Assembly: GCA_965116725.1 (NCBI GenBank)
Contig: OZ220700.1
Span: forward strand, 77,897-141,896
Reading direction: 5' to 3'
Source of the DNA: Thermodesulfobacteriota bacterium
Lineage (GTDB): Bacteria; Desulfobacterota_D; UBA1144; Nemesobacterales; Nemesobacteraceae
DNA: 64,000 nt
The notes below the pieces were generated by a model. The model searched no databases. It worked only from the letters and a program-made list of their open reading frames with translations, and was not told where the DNA came from. Of this stretch, positions 5,950-13,116 are shown one piece after another (positions within the stretch are counted from its first letter, which is position 1; every line of letters starts with the position of its first letter). The position numbers and the translations under genes were made by a program.

Positions 5950-6251
5950 TATCCCAAGAAATATAACAATGCCAACAGTCTCGGACTAAAGTTTCACCTC
6001 CACAGAAGAGATTTGCCGGATTCGCCGGACCTGATTTCCCCAAGGAGAAAAACAGCACTGTTTGTGCATGGATGTTTCTGGTACAGACGCAAGAATTGTT
6101 TGGGAGCAACGACTCCAAAAACCAACATTGAGTACTGGAACAACAAATTCAGGCACAATATGGAGCACGATAGGGAAAGCAGAAGAAAATTGAGCATAAC
6201 AGCTGGAAAGTCTTTGTGATATGGGGTGTGAAACAAAAACTAGGAAATTAA
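5950..6251 (+). pseudogene. vsr: Very-short-patch repair endonuclease (Vsr) remnant, N-terminally truncated and frameshifted
   Basis: LFVHGCFWYRRKNCLGATTPKTNIEYWNNKFRHNMEHDRESRRKL matches the Vsr core (FVDGCFWH ... PKTN.EFW ... RD). The expected C-terminal SWKVFVIWG block continues in the +1 frame after an A-run near 6180. The first roughly 30 residues are missing. Confidence 0.6.
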
Positions 6252-6311: not shown

Positions 6312-7901
6312 TTAGGTGCCCATTACCGCACCGGCTTCCATCATAATAGCCTCGATTTCGGGGCGCAATTTATTTGGTATCTCTGCTGCTTGGTTTATCT
6401 GAACATATTTGAAAGTGTTTAGATCAAACGGCACCCGGTCGTCACACTTGGCAGGTTCAAACAAGAAAATAAGGCGGTTCTTCTCGTGGTGCTTAAGGGC
6501 GAATCCCGCTTCGATATAGACATTGGGACGATGACCTGTAAGGTCGCAAACAATAATGTCAGAAGAAGCGATGGCCTCATACATTCTGGAATGAATGGGA
6601 AAAGTGCCGCCTTCCTCAGTTCCCATGTCGATCAGCTCAAGTCTCATACCATGAACTTGCTGAAAAGTATTGAGTGTTTGTTGAAGTTGTTGGAACCGTA
6701 ACACCGCTTTATCGTAGGCATTTTCCGGTGCATCCTGAGCCGGATACCAGCGGGCGAGAAAAACGCGATTGGGGATACGGGACTGTGCCACCTTGAAGGT
6801 TTCAAGTAACTGTTGTGCTGGAGAAATCGGATTCAACAAGTTGGTAATGCCATGGTCGCCTAGCCAATGGCCAATCCGATCAAGGCAATCCACTGTTCGG
6901 CGAACCTTCTTTTCGTGATCTTCCCCATTTTCTTCATGCCAGACTAGAGCAGCCAGTTCAAGGAAGCCATGCGTTTTGCAGAGAGAAGGATGGTTAACTT
7001 CCAACTGCGTAACGATATCGGATAATCCTGCAAACAAGTCATTTGCGAAACTAGTCAATGTTTGTCGATCTCGGGCGATAGCCGCATCCATGTTGATCAT
7101 GTTTCGAGCAGACTCCCACAAGGCAGTCAGTGGACGCTCACCGAATCGCCGCCTTGTCGGTTCCGGCAATCCCTTCAGTTGATTCGCCAGAAGTCGTGTC
7201 AAGTGCAGTTCTTTACTATAGGAAAACTCGTTGTCCGGTGTCATTGCATAATCTGGGTGCTGGCCGAGCAGCAGGTGCATTCCGTGTTCCGATTCTAACG
7301 GCAGCGCAGTGCTGTTGATGGTATGAAAGATCAGCGATTCCGAGAAATCGTCGGCGTCACTATCTGGTGGCCCAAGCAACACCATGCAAAATGGTGCAAG
7401 ATATTTTTGCGGAAGGTTCACGTCCTCCTGCAAATTTTCAGCAAACGCCAGCCGATGGTTTCCATCAATACGGCGGATGAGCTTATCCGCCTTAATTGCT
7501 TCCAATTCACTAGACTTCACCCGCAGTTTCTGAATACGGTGATTCTTTCCTGTGAAACGCCTTCCCATCCTGATGAGGCCATAGCCCTTTGTTTCAATAC
7601 CTACGGTTTCATTGTCAATCTGGATCGGCTCTCCTTCACAACGGACAGCGAGAATCACCTCTGGGATGAAGCGATTGTCACTGTATTCCAGATAGTTCTT
7701 AATATCTTCTGCGTGTTTAGCGTCAAGCTTGCGTTGGTGACCGTCTACTTGACCAGTCTGGTCACCAACAGTCATTTGATAGGGAACGGAAACCGCCGCC
7801 AGATCACGCAAGTCAGCAAAACCACGAATGATCTTGAAGATGCCGAGAACCCCTGCCGAAAACAGTCCTTCGAATTCGATGTATTGTCGTCGACGGGACA
7901 T
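6312..7901 (-). CDS. Fusion protein: DndB-like DGQHR (ParB/Srx-fold) domain N-terminally, nucleoside 2-deoxyribosyltransferase-like (NDT-like) domain C-terminally
   Basis: The N-terminal region carries a QR motif (GHQRKLDAKHAEDIKNYL), a DGxHR motif (IDGNHRLAF) and FHTINSTALPL, typical of DGQHR/DndB-like proteins. The C-terminus has DLTGHRPNVYIEAGFAL, the ExGxA catalytic block of NDT/DNPH1-like domains. The start lies 2 nt after the hsdS stop on the same strand. Confidence 0.55.
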   Translation of the reverse strand: MSRRRQYIEFEGLFSAGVLGIFKIIRGFADLRDLAAVSVPYQMTVGDQTGQVDGHQRKLDAKHAEDIKNYLEYSDNRFIPEVILAVRCEGEPIQIDNETVGIETKGYGLIRMGRRFTGKNHRIQKLRVKSSELEAIKADKLIRRIDGNHRLAFAENLQEDVNLPQKYLAPFCMVLLGPPDSDADDFSESLIFHTINSTALPLESEHGMHLLLGQHPDYAMTPDNEFSYSKELHLTRLLANQLKGLPEPTRRRFGERPLTALWESARNMINMDAAIARDRQTLTSFANDLFAGLSDIVTQLEVNHPSLCKTHGFLELAALVWHEENGEDHEKKVRRTVDCLDRIGHWLGDHGITNLLNPISPAQQLLETFKVAQSRIPNRVFLARWYPAQDAPENAYDKAVLRFQQLQQTLNTFQQVHGMRLELIDMGTEEGGTFPIHSRMYEAIASSDIIVCDLTGHRPNVYIEAGFALKHHEKNRLIFLFEPAKCDDRVPFDLNTFKYVQINQAAEIPNKLRPEIEAIMMEAGAVMGT

Positions 7902-7902
7902 A

Positions 7903-9234
7903 TCAACTTGCCCCTACAGGATGAATGCCGAGGATCATCTTTTCAATATCGGTTTCCCGGTCGATCAATGTACCGTTGGCAGCGCTGATGTTTTTCATTA
8001 TTTTTAGTCGGCGTTGTGCGAAATCTTGCTGAACAGCGCCAGATATTTCGGGAAGCCTGATCTCGGCTAAGTTCGCATAGTACATTCGTTGTTTCACACC
8101 GCCCACTCGGTTGAATGAAACAAGCGAGAGAAAATAGTCCGTCCGCAGCAAAAGCGCCATGAAATCAGGAAGAAAACCGTTTTTTATCCGCCATACTTGA
8201 TATTCTGGACTGGTAATCGCATCATTCGGTACATCCGGCACGATACCGAGGGAACCGACATTGGCGCGGGTCGGGTTATGGAAAAACCAGTCTTTCTCGA
8301 TCTTCTTGTATGACGCATTGAAATCCTTGCCCTTTTGTATAGAACTTAGGAAAATTCCTTCTTCATTGTTAACGCCATATATGAACCATTCCTTCTCAGG
8401 TTCCACCCAAGGTTTGACGGTTTCGGTACATTCCTCAGTATAATCGCCCAGCCGCACAAATTCAGGATTGGTGGAAATGAAAGCAGCTGCACGTCCGGCT
8501 TTTACATCCCATTGTGTAGCATTAGCGTAGTTGGCAAAAAAGACCCTGGAACGGGCGGTTTGACTAAAGGCGTGTGTTTGGTTTGCGAGATAAGTGTGAA
8601 GTTCAGAAACCAAATCCGATAAAGCCACTTCCGCTGCAAATAAATCTTGCCGCGCGGCCGCCCAGTACGCCTCAATCTGCCGCTGAACAGGTAGCGACGG
8701 GACAGGGACTCTAACTACTTCCAACTGTGCTGGTTGAATGCGCTTGCGCCCAGATGTCCCACTAACCATCGAATTTAGATATTTCTTAAACGCCACTGTT
8801 CTAAACAGGAGTCTTATATAGCCCGGAATCGCTTTATCTGTTTTTACTGAATAGACGGGAAACTCCGATGTGACACACATATTCTCAATATCGTCTGGCG
8901 CAAGGCCAATCGCGCCATTGCGTACATCGATCTTCGAGAAAACTACATCACCCGGATGCGCACGAAATAGTCTTCCCTTGATGTCTTTGATTTGAATGGG
9001 AACACGTGGTTCAATTGAACCGTCAAAGCGAATGGTGAGCAACGTGACCCTTGTCTCTGGAGATAGAGTGGCAAGTGCAGCTTCGCTCCTTCTTTCCAAT
9101 ATCTGATTCAATGGCTGGATGATTTCATCAGGCCAATTCCAATTGACAGAAAATTGGGCTGCTACAGACCAAGATGCCAGTTTTTGAAAAGCAACTGAGA
9201 AGGTTCTTGGGCGAAGTAGAGAATCCATACTCAT
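7903..9234 (-). CDS. hsdS: Type I restriction-modification specificity subunit (HsdS), two target-recognition domains
   Basis: A central conserved spacer LEVVRVPVPSLPVQRQIEAYW and a C-terminal conserved LPEISGAVQQDFAQRRLKIM repeat separate two variable TRDs. The start overlaps the methyltransferase stop as ATGA. Confidence 0.85.
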   Translation of the reverse strand: MSMDSLLRPRTFSVAFQKLASWSVAAQFSVNWNWPDEIIQPLNQILERRSEAALATLSPETRVTLLTIRFDGSIEPRVPIQIKDIKGRLFRAHPGDVVFSKIDVRNGAIGLAPDDIENMCVTSEFPVYSVKTDKAIPGYIRLLFRTVAFKKYLNSMVSGTSGRKRIQPAQLEVVRVPVPSLPVQRQIEAYWAAARQDLFAAEVALSDLVSELHTYLANQTHAFSQTARSRVFFANYANATQWDVKAGRAAAFISTNPEFVRLGDYTEECTETVKPWVEPEKEWFIYGVNNEEGIFLSSIQKGKDFNASYKKIEKDWFFHNPTRANVGSLGIVPDVPNDAITSPEYQVWRIKNGFLPDFMALLLRTDYFLSLVSFNRVGGVKQRMYYANLAEIRLPEISGAVQQDFAQRRLKIMKNISAANGTLIDRETDIEKMILGIHPVGAS

Positions 9235-11462
9235 TCTTGCGTGCCTATGATCATGGCGAAGGCCTCTGGGTCAGCCAGAAATTGCCGGTACCACTCCACA
9301 CACGTCTTTTCGATCTCCGGGGGCTGATTGGAATTCGGATAAAGCTCGTTCTGATCCTCCTCGCCGGTAGCAGAAATACCGACCTTTTCTGCTTCATACA
9401 TAAAAATAGGATAGTCGAAGCGTTCCTTGACAAGTTGCCTGGTTTCGGAATGTTTTCTAGCATCCATCTCTTTCGCGTAGTCCTTCAGTTTCTTTTGCAT
9501 GGTCTTACGCGTTTTGGCATCCCTGTTGTCTTTGGCTCGCTGAATAGCGGCTTCCAATAGTGCTTTTTTCGTTGCTATTTCCTCTGCGTACTTGTCTTCT
9601 ACCTCATCCGTGGCAGCAGCAAGGGTTGCGTCGAACCACTGTTGCTCTTGTTCGGTGAATTTCTTCAAAAAGAGCAGCGAACATTTTACACTGGCCCCAG
9701 AACTTATAAAAGTCTCCTCTGGAAGACTTACCACGGCGCGCAGAAAAGCACGGTCTTCGGTGAATTGACGCACGTAAGCCAGCGAGGGATTGTTGTAGAT
9801 ACCTTCGGGCAACACGATCCCCAATCGACCACCGGGTCTAAGCAGGTCAAGGCAACGTTCGATAAACAGTATTTCTGTCTTTATCTTCGCCCGGTTGCTT
9901 TTTGGCAGATCAAACAGGCTGGCAATGGGCTTGTTAAGTGCAGCCCTTACTCTGTCCTGAGCAGCGCGGTAAATATCCCCGTATTCGCTTATGTAGGACT
10001 GCTCTGCCACTGAGTTGACCGTAATATCGGTCTCAAGCACTCTATCGGAAGGTTCGACATTGGCACCGAAAGGCGGATTAGTCAGGATGATGTCAAAACG
10101 ACCCTCGAAGATACCATTGACGTTTAGAAAGCCATCGTGATGATGTACGCCCCCGTGCCCGTCACCGTGCATGATCATGTTCATCTTACTGGTACGCGCC
10201 ATCCTGTCATTGGCATCTGTTCCATAGATGCAGCGATTCGATAGGTTCCACAATCGGGAGCCTTCGCGCTGCTGGTCAATGGACGACTGAATTTCTGTAT
10301 ATTTATCCTGAAGCATTTTGGCTTTTTTTGCTGCGGGCAATGATTTTTTTACGTCAATGCCCTTTTTGTAGGTGTTATATTCCCGGTCGGCGTCTTCCAG
10401 TATTTTTTCCCGCACGAGTTCAAAAACACGGATTAAAAATCCACCTGAACCACTGGCGGGGTCACAGACAATTTCACCTTCTTGAGGATCGACCATGCGT
10501 ACCATGAATTCGACGATGGAGCGTGGAGTGAAAAACTGACCGATCTCTCCCCGAAATGTACGCCCAAGAAAGCGTTCAAAAGCAACACCCTTTACATCTT
10601 CGCTGGTATCGGAAAGGTTGTATTTCTCTAGCTTCCGAACAATCTCTTCACCGGTGGCTGGCCTCAAGTTGATGCGCTCTTCTTTCTCAAAAATCTTGTC
10701 ATTGGCGTAAGCGTTCTTTGTGTTTTGAAAAAGGGTATCTAGCGGATTTTCGGAAATCTGATCATGAAGCACATCAACAGTAAACAGATTCTTCCTATTA
10801 CGTCGGGTCAACAACTGCCGTTCCACATAGACTTTCGTGAACAACACTTTGGCGATCTCATCAAAAGCGGCCGCCGGGTCCTTCTTTTCTCTGTTACGAA
10901 TGATGTTGTGGCACTGGTGTAATAGATCGGCGAATTCTTTTTCCTTGAAGGCGCGCAATTTGGAGAATAATTCAGTAATATCACTGTCCGAAGCATCACC
11001 ATGCGGAATATTTTCGATTTCCTCAGTGTAACCGGGCAGTTTATCTTTTATTATTCGCCAGTATTTTGTTTCCCGCGAATTATGGGTAACAAAAAAGGGT
11101 GCGCCACAGATACGCGCATAATTTTCGCCCTGATTGTAATCCTGAGCTTTGATCGTGACGTTATCGGATTTGCATTCGACAATAATAAAGGGAGCGTTAT
11201 TGTCCGCTTTATCCTGTTGCGTCCGCCATATGACGAAATCCGCTCTAGCCCCGGCACTACCCGGACCGGTCAGATCTAGTTCCTCCGATATTTGGGCGGG
11301 TGTGAAACCATATTCGTTGATCAGTATCAATAAGTAATTTTGTCGTACGGTCTCTTCGGGGGTTTCAACTAACCATTTACTGCGAATGTAGCTCCAGATT
11401 TGTCCTTTTGACTCGTCTCGTTTGATATTTAAGGCACTCATATCTCGGTGTTTCCTTTGCAA
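9231..11462 (-). CDS. Gamma-class N6-adenine DNA methyltransferase (HsdM-like) with an N-terminal HsdR_N-type PD-(D/E)xK domain
   Basis: Motif X/I (QFFTPRSIVEFMV ... DPASGSGGFL) and motif IV (ILTNPPFG) are present. Residues about 60 to 130 (ADFVIW ... FIIVECKSDN ... QGENYA) resemble the HsdR N-terminal restriction-endonuclease-like domain. Confidence 0.85.
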   Translation of the reverse strand: MQRKHRDMSALNIKRDESKGQIWSYIRSKWLVETPEETVRQNYLLILINEYGFTPAQISEELDLTGPGSAGARADFVIWRTQQDKADNNAPFIIVECKSDNVTIKAQDYNQGENYARICGAPFFVTHNSRETKYWRIIKDKLPGYTEEIENIPHGDASDSDITELFSKLRAFKEKEFADLLHQCHNIIRNREKKDPAAAFDEIAKVLFTKVYVERQLLTRRNRKNLFTVDVLHDQISENPLDTLFQNTKNAYANDKIFEKEERINLRPATGEEIVRKLEKYNLSDTSEDVKGVAFERFLGRTFRGEIGQFFTPRSIVEFMVRMVDPQEGEIVCDPASGSGGFLIRVFELVREKILEDADREYNTYKKGIDVKKSLPAAKKAKMLQDKYTEIQSSIDQQREGSRLWNLSNRCIYGTDANDRMARTSKMNMIMHGDGHGGVHHHDGFLNVNGIFEGRFDIILTNPPFGANVEPSDRVLETDITVNSVAEQSYISEYGDIYRAAQDRVRAALNKPIASLFDLPKSNRAKIKTEILFIERCLDLLRPGGRLGIVLPEGIYNNPSLAYVRQFTEDRAFLRAVVSLPEETFISSGASVKCSLLFLKKFTEQEQQWFDATLAAATDEVEDKYAEEIATKKALLEAAIQRAKDNRDAKTRKTMQKKLKDYAKEMDARKHSETRQLVKERFDYPIFMYEAEKVGISATGEEDQNELYPNSNQPPEIEKTCVEWYRQFLADPEAFAMIIGTQE

Positions 11463-11557: not shown

Positions 11558-12308
11558 CCGTATCGCATAGTCAATATTCGTGTACCTGTTTCGATTTCGC
11601 CACGGGTACCCCGTGTTCGTTGCAATGGGAATTATATACAATCCTACACAAAACTTTGAATTTCTCCCTGTAAGACCTTAACTCTCACTCTTGTTTTAGG
11701 TGATATTTTACACAAATAGAGAGAATGATTAAGAAGAGTTAGAAATGTCTAAGAAGAAACGTAAAACCCTTGGGAAGTCAGACGGAGAGGGGATAGAATT
11801 GAGAAACTGTTTTAACTCTTTCCGACTGAGGAAGCGACGGTGAAGTAGTTTGAGGAAAGACGCTGGCCAATACGTACAAACAACGGTGACAGCCGATTAA
11901 AGCCCGGCGAATACCTTTTAGAATCTGGCTCTCCAGATTCAGGTTCATATAATTTTCTGGATCCATATCGACTCGACTTCGTGCTCTTTGTCGTACTTAA
12001 AATGAAAGGACAAAGAACATTACACAAGAGCTCGCTAGCTGGACATAGCTGTTAGGTTATTTGGGCCGGCCGAAAATATCGGATCAGAAAGCTACGCTGG
12101 AAAGGCTTACTAAGAAGTTCGAACATGAAAAAGAAAAACCAAACTAAGAAAACTCGAGACCGGCCAGTCAAGAACTTAAGCAAGCCTACCAATGCCTCAC
12201 CAGAAGAAACAGCTAAAGCAATATCTCTGCCGGCGGAAAAGAAGCTAGAAGTCTCAAAGAAAATCAAGAACTAAGAGTCTGGTAGAATTGTATATAATTT
12301 CCAATCCA

Positions 12309-12575
12309 TTAGATGAAATGTTTGGTCCATATCCAAATTTCAGCAGTAATACACGCTCTGAGCTTCTGCCGTAACTTCTCTGGTGTCTCCCAAACAATAC
12401 GATTGTATTGGCGTGTGTCGAAACGGATTTTCTCTATTACATCTCTACAAGTAAATATCACCGGAATATTGAGTCCATGAGCAAAGTCCGCTTCGTAGTA
12501 GACACCCTATACTGGGTTCTCACTCCTCAGTTGCTAAAGGCTCCGGTCCATAAGTAATTTCCTTAGATTCTCCTT
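12309..12575 (-). pseudogene. Decayed paralog of the NDT-like domain (remnant with in-frame stops)
   Basis: Minus-strand translation gives LRSENPV*GVYYEADFAHGLNIPVIFTCRDVIEKIRFDTRQYNRIVWETPEKLRQKLRA. This aligns with the C-terminus of the 6312..7901 protein (DLTGHRPNVYIEAGFALKHHEKNRLIFLF ... VPFDLNTFKYVQ ... PNKLRPEIEA). It is interrupted by TAG stops and has no start. Confidence 0.4.
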
Positions 12576-13116
12576 CTCCTATCTCCCAGCATTGACGAAA
12601 TCTTTCTAAACGATCCGAGCTGAAGCGAGCCTCATATAAGCGAGTAGAGCGGGTTGCTACGACTGAAAATTGGAAGGATTCATCACGTGCCAAGGAATTC
12701 ATTTTCTCGACCATTTCTTCTTCGTTGGTATCCCACAGTTCTATGTCTCTCGCGTTGCCTCCTTTGTTGTCGATTATCCAGATCCACCAATTCTCGTGTG
12801 AATCGATTCGAAGAGTGAGATGGGGTATGATATCCCGTGAGTCTGCTTTCTGTAACAATTCAGTCTGCTTGCCGAGCTGATCTCGCGTAAGCGATAACTC
12901 CTTGCGCTGAAGGCGGAGTTCTTTGGACTGCAGGAAATACCCGTATACCAGCCAAAGGAAAGCTAGAGGTGTGAAGAGACCTGCAAGAAAGTCTCCCAAC
13001 TCGCTAAGGTTGCCTGCCTTTAAGAGCTCCCATGCATCGTTACTGCGGAAAAAGAGAATGGCGACAATGTAGAGAATACTCAGGCCAACTATTATCCAGG
13101 AATTAGAAAACTTCAT
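12520..13116 (-). CDS. Hypothetical membrane protein (two predicted N-terminal TM helices, coiled-coil-like middle)
   Basis: Hydrophobic stretches WIIVGLSILYIVAILFF and LAGLFTPLAFLWLVYGYFL. It is AT-rich. Its 3' end overlaps the NDT-like remnant in another frame, so it may be the decayed N-terminal half of one former gene. Confidence 0.4.
   Translation of the reverse strand: MKFSNSWIIVGLSILYIVAILFFRSNDAWELLKAGNLSELGDFLAGLFTPLAFLWLVYGYFLQSKELRLQRKELSLTRDQLGKQTELLQKADSRDIIPHLTLRIDSHENWWIWIIDNKGGNARDIELWDTNEEEMVEKMNSLARDESFQFSVVATRSTRLYEARFSSDRLERFRQCWEIGEGESKEITYGPEPLATEE

Follow-up and report, generated by a model that had tools for sequence, protein, structure and literature searches.

How does a methyltransferase gene paired with a Type I-like specificity gene restrict DNA when no HsdR accompanies it, and what does the third gene of such an operon contribute? 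This question is raised by three minus-strand genes in a 64-kb stretch of contig OZ220700.1 from a Thermodesulfobacteriota bacterium (the window, meaning the whole of the DNA analysed), namely a methyltransferase gene (gene 1, M), a specificity-subunit gene (gene 2, S) and a gene for a 529-residue protein (gene 3). The original prediction took them for an HsdM-like methyltransferase, HsdS and a fusion protein occupying the place of the missing nuclease. In this study, M appears as a predicted nuclease-methyltransferase fusion that is homologous to the RM subunit of Type IIB restriction-modification (R-M) enzymes and has its catalytic residues intact, and M and S together probably constitute a complete Type IIB-like R-M enzyme. 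As M carries a nuclease domain of its own, gene 3 does not fill an empty nuclease position and is instead an additional, obligate partner.

The open reading frames (ORFs) of the window and the junctions between them confirmed three same-direction, tightly coupled minus-strand genes, with the M stop and the S start overlapping as ATGA. At the second junction, where a gap of 2 nt had been given, a single nucleotide lies between the S stop and the ATG of gene 3 (TGAtATG). The longest ORF of gene 1 begins at a TTG, but homologues and gene callers use the ATG at 11441, and the exact 736-residue product of that start (MSALNIK...) is contained in a public protein collection. The M gene thus probably spans 9231..11441, translation of the first seven codons of the TTG-initiated ORF (11441-11462) is unlikely, and M residues are numbered here on the 736-residue protein. 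The features of the operon are as follows.

9231..11441, minus strand: gene 1, the 'RM' subunit of 736 residues from ATG 11441, with a predicted PD-(D/E)xK nuclease, a helical connector and a gamma-class N6-adenine methyltransferase
9231..11462, minus strand: longest ORF of gene 1, 743 residues, TTG start at 11462
11004..11360, minus strand: nuclease domain of gene 1, residues 28-146 (Pfam HSDR_N_2, E 2e-22; E...D...ExK motif)
9603..10601, minus strand: methyltransferase core of gene 1, about residues 281-613 (Pfam N6_Mtase, E 2.6e-34)
7903..9234, minus strand: gene 2 (S), specificity subunit of 443 residues with two target-recognition domains (TRDs), by Pfam and PADLOC
6312..7901, minus strand: gene 3, 529 residues, with a DGQHR/ParB-like domain, a helical middle and a domain like nucleoside 2-deoxyribosyltransferase (NDT) and DNPH1, related to TIR
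7287..7901, minus strand: N-terminal DGQHR/ParB-like domain of gene 3, residues 1-205 (QR, RxDGNHR and FxxxN motifs)
6786..7286, minus strand: all-helical middle of gene 3, residues 206-372, from AlphaFold2 (AF2) models
6315..6785, minus strand: C-terminal flavodoxin-like domain of gene 3, NDT/DNPH1/MilB-like (DrHyd, TIR-related), residues 373-529
11631..11660, minus strand: promoter-like site upstream of gene 1, TTCAAA-18-TATAAT, matching at 10/12 positions, a consensus match only

In M, the nuclease domain recognised by Pfam is followed by the methyltransferase, which displays the motifs DPASGSGGF and NPPF, and the PADLOC MTase_I model PDLC03018 covers the protein from end to end (E 9e-227). 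The closest solved structure is RM.BsaXI (8w0p), found in a PDB search at E 3e-26 with the single sequence and at E 6e-42 with a family profile built from 31 members, the match being collinear in four segments. These are the nuclease domain (BsaXI 45-126), the connector with the first half of the methyltransferase (210-485), NPPF, and the C-terminal half (549-783), in which the near-identical motif DYPIFM(Y/A)EAE(K/N)VG is held. Downstream of the methyltransferase core we observed a predicted long helical hairpin and a conserved DYPIFMYEAEKVG motif common to BsaXI. E54, D68, E89 and K91 of M are invariant in the 31-member alignment, as is NPPF, and these four residues align on E73/D90/E105/K107 of BsaXI, whose substitution by alanine abolishes BsaXI cleavage and which have been reported as conserved across Type IIB enzymes (PMC11997821). 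A nuclease tetrad that stays invariant in a family diverged to about 42% identity indicates selection for catalysis. The description of gene 1 as an HsdM-like methyltransferase thus holds for its methyltransferase part only; it is not a plain HsdM, because it bears an N-terminal PD-(D/E)xK nuclease domain and is collinear with the RM subunit of BsaXI.

The specificity subunit was recognised by Pfam Methylase_S and by the Specificity_I models of PADLOC on both halves (residues 62-212 and 235-395). Between loci, S ranges from 22 to 89% identity with shuffling of TRDs, while M and gene 3 stay at 67-90%, a pattern of variation as expected for systems that would be diversifying their target specificity. 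Moreover, three of the metagenome loci encode M and a half-size S as one polypeptide of 941-982 residues, a single-chain R-M-S that precedes gene 3; this chain stops 1-3 nt before the gene-3 start or overlaps it by a few nucleotides, and the arrangement parallels that of single-chain Type IIB/IIG enzymes. Here and below, loci outside the window carry L numbers.

L009 7051-9999: single-chain R-M-S
L035 125-2950: single-chain R-M-S
L058 640-3513: single-chain R-M-S

Active BsaXI has been reconstituted from RM and S with no further protein (PMC9159934), and for this reason no HsdR is expected beside the present pair. An HsdR was sought as a protein of about 750-1100 residues combining a superfamily 2 (SF2) helicase/translocase with a nuclease. 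None was found in the 64-kb window, where the only ORFs of at least 700 residues are M, AceE (889 residues) and a class A penicillin-binding protein (865 residues), in agreement with what had been claimed.

Gene 3 was matched at threshold by no model of Pfam, NCBIfam release 20 (June 2026) or PADLOC v2, and these profile searches, which the original prediction had proposed as a check, did not make it a full-length member of any characterised family at threshold. Below the cut-offs, TIGR03187 DGQHR reached E 2.5e-9 (37.3 bits against a cut-off of 58.85), Pfam DndB PF14072 reached 14.7 bits against 29.1 and matched weakly in 48 of 52 family members, and a weak DpdB match appeared in the scans of defence and family libraries. 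The PADLOC model 'Effector TIR' PDLC00733 fell on residues 414-509 (E 1.2e-9), Pfam CAP12-PCTIR_TIR PF10137 scored 14.6 bits against a cut-off of 24.7 with weak matches in 41/52 members, and Pfam Nuc_deoxyrib_tr PF05014 was seen below its cut-off in 3/52, at best with E 0.047.

The alignment of family members down to 20% identity revealed which residues are kept. In the N-terminus, Q56 and R57 (QR), R144 together with D146-R150 (RxDGNHR) and F192 are invariant, and N196 is nearly so (FxxxN); the pentapeptide is the variant DGNHR of the set QR, DGQHR and FxxxN by which DGQHR domains have been defined (PMC4619093). The C-terminus carries the motif DLTxxxPNVxxExGxA, with N460, V461, E464 and G466 invariant, and the remaining invariant positions comprise eight scattered single residues and the pair P80-E81. 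The single gene-3 sequence gave no match in a PDB sequence search, but a profile of the C-terminal 155 residues matched the CMP N-glycosidase 4jen (E 5e-5), the nucleoside 2-deoxyribosyltransferase 2a0k (E 2e-4) and DNPH1/Rcl (E 0.007-0.03), and E464 was aligned with the catalytic Glu in each of these N-glycosidase alignments. The C-terminus is modelled as a flavodoxin-like fold with a conserved Glu in an ExG motif after strand 3, and fold searches agree with an NDT-type family. Full-length fold searches returned MilB, NDT and TIR matches and otherwise generic flavodoxin-like folds (CheY receivers, LacI), which are uninformative, and the helical middle obtained no informative fold match. The claim that gene 3 joins a DGQHR/ParB-like domain with an NDT/DNPH1-like domain is therefore upheld by the invariant motifs and by the position of E464 on the catalytic Glu. 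The C-terminal domain is a predicted member of the TIR-DrHyd-SLOG class. Domains of this class found in conflict systems have a known or predicted effector role, as NADases or in nucleotide processing (PMC9503650). The protein is best treated as a putative separate family with a DndB/DGQHR-related N-terminus and an NDT/DNPH1/TIR-like C-terminus.

Relatives of gene 3 are extensively dispersed. We found 665 among 90%-identity clusters, all named 'hypothetical', and 545 in the set of 50%-identity representatives, where full-length members reach down to about 23% identity. Their hundreds of sequence clusters cover Proteobacteria, Firmicutes, Chloroflexi and Desulfobacterota, with relatives that are 65-81% identical in Pseudomonas, Metallumcola (Firmicutes), Dehalococcoidia, Geobacteraceae, Thiomicrospira and others. 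The order M (HSDR_N_2 plus N6_Mtase), S, gene 3 was present in all four long genome contigs, from Firmicutes, Pseudomonas, Zhongshania and Trichlorobacter. A metagenome scan with the gene-3 alignment yielded 80 loci, of which we considered as informative the 49 in which the gene-3 N-terminus is intact and 3.7 kb or more of upstream sequence is available; in 48 of these M lies within 2 kb upstream of gene 3 with S between, and the 49th has a split M. The same arrangement was also seen in two relatives whose gene 3 is only 24% and 31% identical. Among 56 distinct loci, the S stop and the gene-3 start are 1 nt apart in 33, and the distance never leaves the range from -11 to +11 nt. Since dozens of unrelated contigs show identical order and junctions, the three-gene arrangement is not due to chance. 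Across loci, the identity of M and that of gene 3, each measured to the window protein, are correlated with r = 0.95. Judged by these comparisons, the cassette is a conserved and apparently horizontally mobile three-gene unit in which gene 3 co-diverges with M.

The check on homologue neighbourhoods that the original prediction had suggested, namely conserved gene order in the absence of hsdR, was thereby borne out at the 48 metagenome loci and the four genome contigs. More than 50 related loci showed no recurrent HsdR or helicase at a distance of up to 10 kb, a single helicase-domain gene being present 3 kb upstream in one of them (L034). Large genes beside the cassette were considered as HsdR candidates and rejected, as they are unrelated, variable genes of defence type: a PHP-ATPase (with ABC/AbiEii-like ATPase domains), a leucine-rich repeat hydrolase, EVE-McrB, a PNP_UDP protein and an AAA_13 protein. 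A canonical Type I system with a distant hsdR is likewise supported by no neighbourhood, and it is unneeded given the nuclease domain of M.

A paralogous cassette bears on the role of the third position. On the Flammeovirga kamogawensis plasmid NZ_CP076130.1 (L089 7692-13356), a helix-turn-helix (HTH) regulator, an HSDR_N_2-N6_Mtase protein 44% identical to M, and S are followed by an OLD-family ATPase-TOPRIM nuclease, which takes the position of gene 3. Because this paralogous M-S pair carries an OLD-family nuclease as its third gene, the comparison suggests that the third position is an exchangeable effector slot.

We did not recover the cassette from phage or E. coli collections, and the plasmid collection yielded only a fusion on the Leisingera thetidis plasmid NZ_CP109788.1 (L091 5809-8052). 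In this 747-residue 'N-6 DNA methylase', an M-like connector and methyltransferase up to NPPF are joined directly to a gene-3-like part that runs from just before DGNHR to the C-terminal motif NVYHEIGY, and the nuclease domain, S and the QR motif are lacking. It has probably arisen by deletion from a divergent cassette, and we did not use it as Rosetta-stone evidence. A further set of gene-3 matches (L038, L042-L044, L064, L075-L079 and L082) is missing the first 80-170 residues; where flanks exist (e.g. L075, L076) neither M nor S is nearby, and these contigs probably hold decayed remnants of the cassette.

What, then, may the three proteins do together? Jointly, we favour, tentatively and as a reading that may well be right, a Type IIB-like RM-S enzyme with gene 3 as a gated second-layer effector that would cleave nucleotides or NAD+. 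From the domains described above we infer enzyme activities, complex formation, a trigger and a substrate along the following lines. RM and S would methylate host sites and cut unmethylated DNA at a bipartite target set by S, assembling as (RM)2S by analogy with BsaXI. Gene 3 would be a third subunit or a tightly associated partner, obligate in this clade, whose ParB/DGQHR-like domain may act as a sensor or switch through gating by DNA or NTP, and whose NDT/DNPH1-like domain may cleave N-glycosidic bonds of a nucleotide or of NAD+ by means of the invariant Glu464. In relatives including DndB, DpdB, GmrS and SspE, the ParB/DGQHR-like domain binds NTP and engages DNA. It would be triggered when restriction is engaged, or when it is blocked, for example by an anti-restriction protein, and the depletion of NAD+ or nucleotides would then stop phage growth, as an abortive second layer of defence. 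This second-layer model is proposed because GmrSD and SspE follow a similar logic of ParB-like sensor and effector, because PrrC and Ronin offer precedents, and because the third gene of the paralogous cassette is an effector.

Several observations weigh against this reading. The nuclease segment of the alignment of M with BsaXI amounts to only 12 bits by itself, but this weak alignment is backed by the strong Pfam match and the invariance of the residues, on which the predicted nuclease rests. M is without a counterpart of the last approximately 130 residues of BsaXI RM, as the alignment stops at BsaXI 783/916 with about 22 M residues remaining beyond it, while a helical hairpin sits earlier in M. 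The missing region includes the 'paddle' residues D816 and E823, which are required for BsaXI cleavage (PMC11997821), and as a paddle counterpart was not recognised in M, autonomous cleavage by M and S is not assured. For gene 3, no family profile attains its curated cut-off, the AF2 models are of moderate confidence (predicted local distance difference test, pLDDT, of 75 and 73), TIR chains were absent from the PDB sequence search with the C-terminal profile, and the solved relatives of the C-terminal domain use (deoxy)nucleoside monophosphates or nucleosides, not NAD+. Again, if M and S sufficed, one would not expect a mere back-up to be retained almost without exception, as gene 3 is, and an integral catalytic role would fit its never being lost equally well. 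We keep our preference for a nucleotide- or NAD+-cleaving second layer tentative because the solved relatives do not act on NAD+, M seems to be without the paddle and gene 3 is never lost.

An integral role is most directly expressed by the explanation that gene 3 acts on DNA, which we consider somewhat unlikely. Its ParB-like NTPase would load near RM-S sites and its NDT-like domain would cleave or exchange bases, either as a glycosylase-type restriction of unmethylated targets or as a further modification of host sites, comparable to DpdB assisting the transglycosylase DpdA. DndB and DpdB are DGQHR proteins of DNA modification systems, and such proteins characteristically work on DNA in these systems; gene 3 has the motifs and a weak DpdB match. 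NDT enzymes exchange the base on deoxyribose by way of an intermediate bound to a Glu, the residue with which E464 is aligned. Co-divergence with M and the constant presence of gene 3 suit an integral subunit better than a back-up toxin, and the protein could supply a missing step, as M seems to be without the BsaXI paddle. However, the domain is small, its nearest profile in the defence library is a TIR-type effector, the invariant nuclease motif points to M for strand cleavage, and action on polymeric DNA is not known to us for any member of the NDT/DNPH1 family. The specific form in which the ParB-like domain is an NTP-dependent clamp delivering an N-glycosyl enzyme, so that adenine or its methylated form is excised or exchanged at RM-S sites, seems quite improbable to us; if true, restriction or modification would work partly by base removal or replacement, beyond strand cleavage. 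In a related variant, gene 3 would sense or destroy N6-methyl-dAMP, tying the methylome to immunity. A separate explanation, which we hold to be unlikely, makes gene 3 a regulator or a housekeeping protein: it would exert DndB-like control over the extent of methylation or restriction by the operon, or would, in the manner of DNPH1, clear away or sense the N6-methyl-dAMP that degraded methylated DNA sets free. DndB is described as a DGQHR protein that regulates modification (PMC4507180; PMC3632139). To judge by the names of the matches, DNPH1 and MilB hydrolyse modified nucleoside monophosphates. Methylated mononucleotides have been presented as danger signals, with DrHyd effectors linked to N6-adenine methylases (bioRxiv 10.64898/2026.01.15.699771). 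Against regulation stand the position of gene 3 at the end of the operon, its lack of an HTH domain and the OLD-family nuclease that occupies the same slot in the paralogous cassette; R-M systems tolerate the loss of a regulator poorly, but their control is usually exerted by small C proteins. A DNA-type ParB domain, for its part, would be unneeded for sanitising a nucleotide pool.

Two further explanations were weighed. The model of the original prediction, in which M and S only recognise and methylate, cutting is not done by the nuclease-like domain of M, and gene 3 replaces HsdR as sole effector, draws on the absence of hsdR from the window and from the side of every locus, on the constant presence of gene 3 and on Ronin, where HsdMS is re-used with a different effector. 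We nevertheless regard it as very unlikely, as the nuclease tetrad, invariant at about 42% divergence, implies selected catalysis and M is homologous over its full length to an enzyme that cleaves without a third protein. Similarly improbable, in our estimation, is a guard of PrrC or Ronin type only, in which gene 3 would be a latent toxin held on RM-S and freed when anti-restriction proteins of the Ocr/ArdA type bind, with no role in ordinary restriction. PrrC and Ronin are precedents for such a guard, co-divergence with M is as expected of a physical partner, and gene 3 does possess an effector-type domain; on the other hand, the guard overlaps with the gated second-layer effector that we favour, from which it differs in the trigger only, and a purely protein-protein trigger leaves the conserved ParB-like NTP/DNA domain unexplained.

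The genomic setting of the cassette agrees with the claim of an AT-rich island at a defence hotspot. GC content is 41-49% at about 5.5-13 kb of the window, compared with 52-58% in the dnaK and aceE flanks, and close relatives, with an AceE in the same cluster of at least 90% identity, carry other cargo upstream of aceE, comprising HipA/HTH, HEPN-like and Endonuclease_NS genes, from which we regard this spot as a variable hotspot.

L095 1-9762: cargo upstream of aceE in a close relative
L096 491-4574: cargo upstream of aceE in a close relative
L097 478-4561: cargo upstream of aceE in a close relative

The first of these contigs additionally has a DnaJ-domain protein and, about 9 kb upstream of aceE, an OLD-type ATPase-TOPRIM; dnaK was not seen in the three contigs. 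Regarding the neighbours that had been named, vsr is indeed present, as a truncated fragment of a very-short-patch repair endonuclease gene at 6013-6219 on the plus strand (Pfam Vsr, C-terminal 25 residues only, E 3.6e-7), whereas the NDT-like remnants were not found, since tblastn of gene 3 against the window returned nothing beyond chance. The vsr fragment has no adjoining cytosine methyltransferase and was probably left behind by a previous occupant of the island. Also within the low-GC island is an ORF of 198 residues at 12520-13116 on the minus strand, which is hydrophobic in its N-terminal half and was matched by no Pfam model.

In other loci, the neighbours of the cassette include Mrr, Fic, HEPN-DUF5655, OLD-like and McrB-EVE genes. 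An optional fourth gene often overlaps or abuts the gene-3 stop, though none does so in the window; its types are an Mrr_cat endonuclease (one with HARE-HTH), Fic, DUF4145(HEPN)-DUF5655 and NucS_C (with DUF5655 in L004). Loci with a fourth gene are listed below.

L004 11629-12555: fourth gene
L007 11635-12678: fourth gene
L019 11380-12438: fourth gene
L023 11629-12669: fourth gene
L049 6677-7711: fourth gene
L055 11635-12669: fourth gene
L060 1778-2815: fourth gene
L092 6330-7424: fourth gene

Just upstream of the cassette in a Metallumcola-related locus (L002 1360-4396), two ThsB-type TIR genes flank a MAP3K_TRAF_bd (DUF4071)/TPR-S protein. This module adjoins an integrase and IS21 fragments and is a second defence module of TIR/DrHyd type in the same island.

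With reference to the literature, no description of the M-S-gene 3 trio was found by full-text searching, in which the TIR/DrHyd/SLOG literature was incompletely covered. The proposal of a candidate undescribed system that links M and S to a non-helicase effector is thus retained as far as the trio is concerned, but the concept is not new, as PrrC/EcoprrI and Ronin precede it. What appears new here is a deeply conserved putative accessory enzyme of an R-M system, R-M-linked accessory effectors being already an established theme. If confirmed, the cassette would represent a widespread R-M subtype whose Type IIB-like enzyme is invariably accompanied by a ParB-like/N-glycosidase protein; with present annotation tools its loci would be recorded as orphan or incomplete Type I systems. 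Being compact, the three genes would offer a handle on the coupling between sequence-specific restriction and an effector directed at metabolism or nucleotides, and they may reveal roles of NDT/DNPH1-type domains in bacterial immunity. The RM-S part may moreover give new Type IIB specificities for biotechnology.

Among known systems, MADS shows a resemblance, through a MAD2 match of M (E 9e-90) and a weak MAD5 match of S. Membership was rejected on the equivalog cut-offs (301.8 against 720 for MAD2 and 26.4 against 400 for MAD5) and on gene content, MADS being an eight-gene system; besides MAD2 and MAD5, no NCBIfam model of MADS matched M, S or gene 3, in a scan of these three proteins. With Type I R-M the cassette shares the architecture of S, the shuffling of TRDs and the translational coupling of M with S, and PADLOC applies the labels MTase_I and Specificity_I. 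However, it has no HsdR translocase, and whereas canonical HsdM proteins carry an HsdM_N domain at the N-terminus, M carries the HSDR_N_2 nuclease domain there; with no HsdR and an M of different architecture, the cassette is not assigned to Type I.

Gene 3 resembles DndB, DpdB, GmrSD and SspE in its N-terminal QR, DGxHR and FxxxN motifs, in the order of a sensor/NTPase followed by an effector, and in being tied to a DNA-modification system. It differs from them in that its effector is NDT/DNPH1-like and not HNH, PD-(D/E)xK or HEPN, in that it scores below the DGQHR and DndB cut-offs, and in that its partner is an N6-methyladenine (m6A) system of Type IIB-like kind, not Dnd, Ssp or Dpd. The idea that effector fusions of ParB-like COG1479/DGQHR proteins lie beside R-M loci, possibly as cell-death modules, was already put forward in 2013 (PMC3632139). 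The NDT, DNPH1 (Rcl), MilB and TIR/DrHyd proteins have in common with gene 3 the flavodoxin-like fold, the ExG Glu placed on the catalytic Glu and the PADLOC TIR effector match, but in gene 3 this domain is joined to a ParB-like one and encoded within an R-M operon, and its Pfam scores are sub-threshold.

The genetic welding of an M-S module to a non-helicase effector is shared with PrrC/EcoprrI and Ronin. PrrC is an anticodon nuclease, and Ronin consists of HsdM, HsdS and the 61-residue membrane toxin RonA, without a nuclease; in contrast, the present M keeps its nuclease domain, and the partner is a 529-residue protein with two enzyme-type domains. Closest of all are the Type IIB enzymes BsaXI and BcgI, with which the cassette shares an N-terminal PD-(D/E)xK nuclease, a connector and a gamma-class N6-adenine methyltransferase in one chain, as well as a separate Type I-like S with two TRDs. 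Unlike BsaXI, which works as RM and S, it has an obligate third gene at every locus, and its M seems to be without the C-terminal paddle region. In the features that can be tested on sequence, the cassette is that of a putative Type IIB R-M system.

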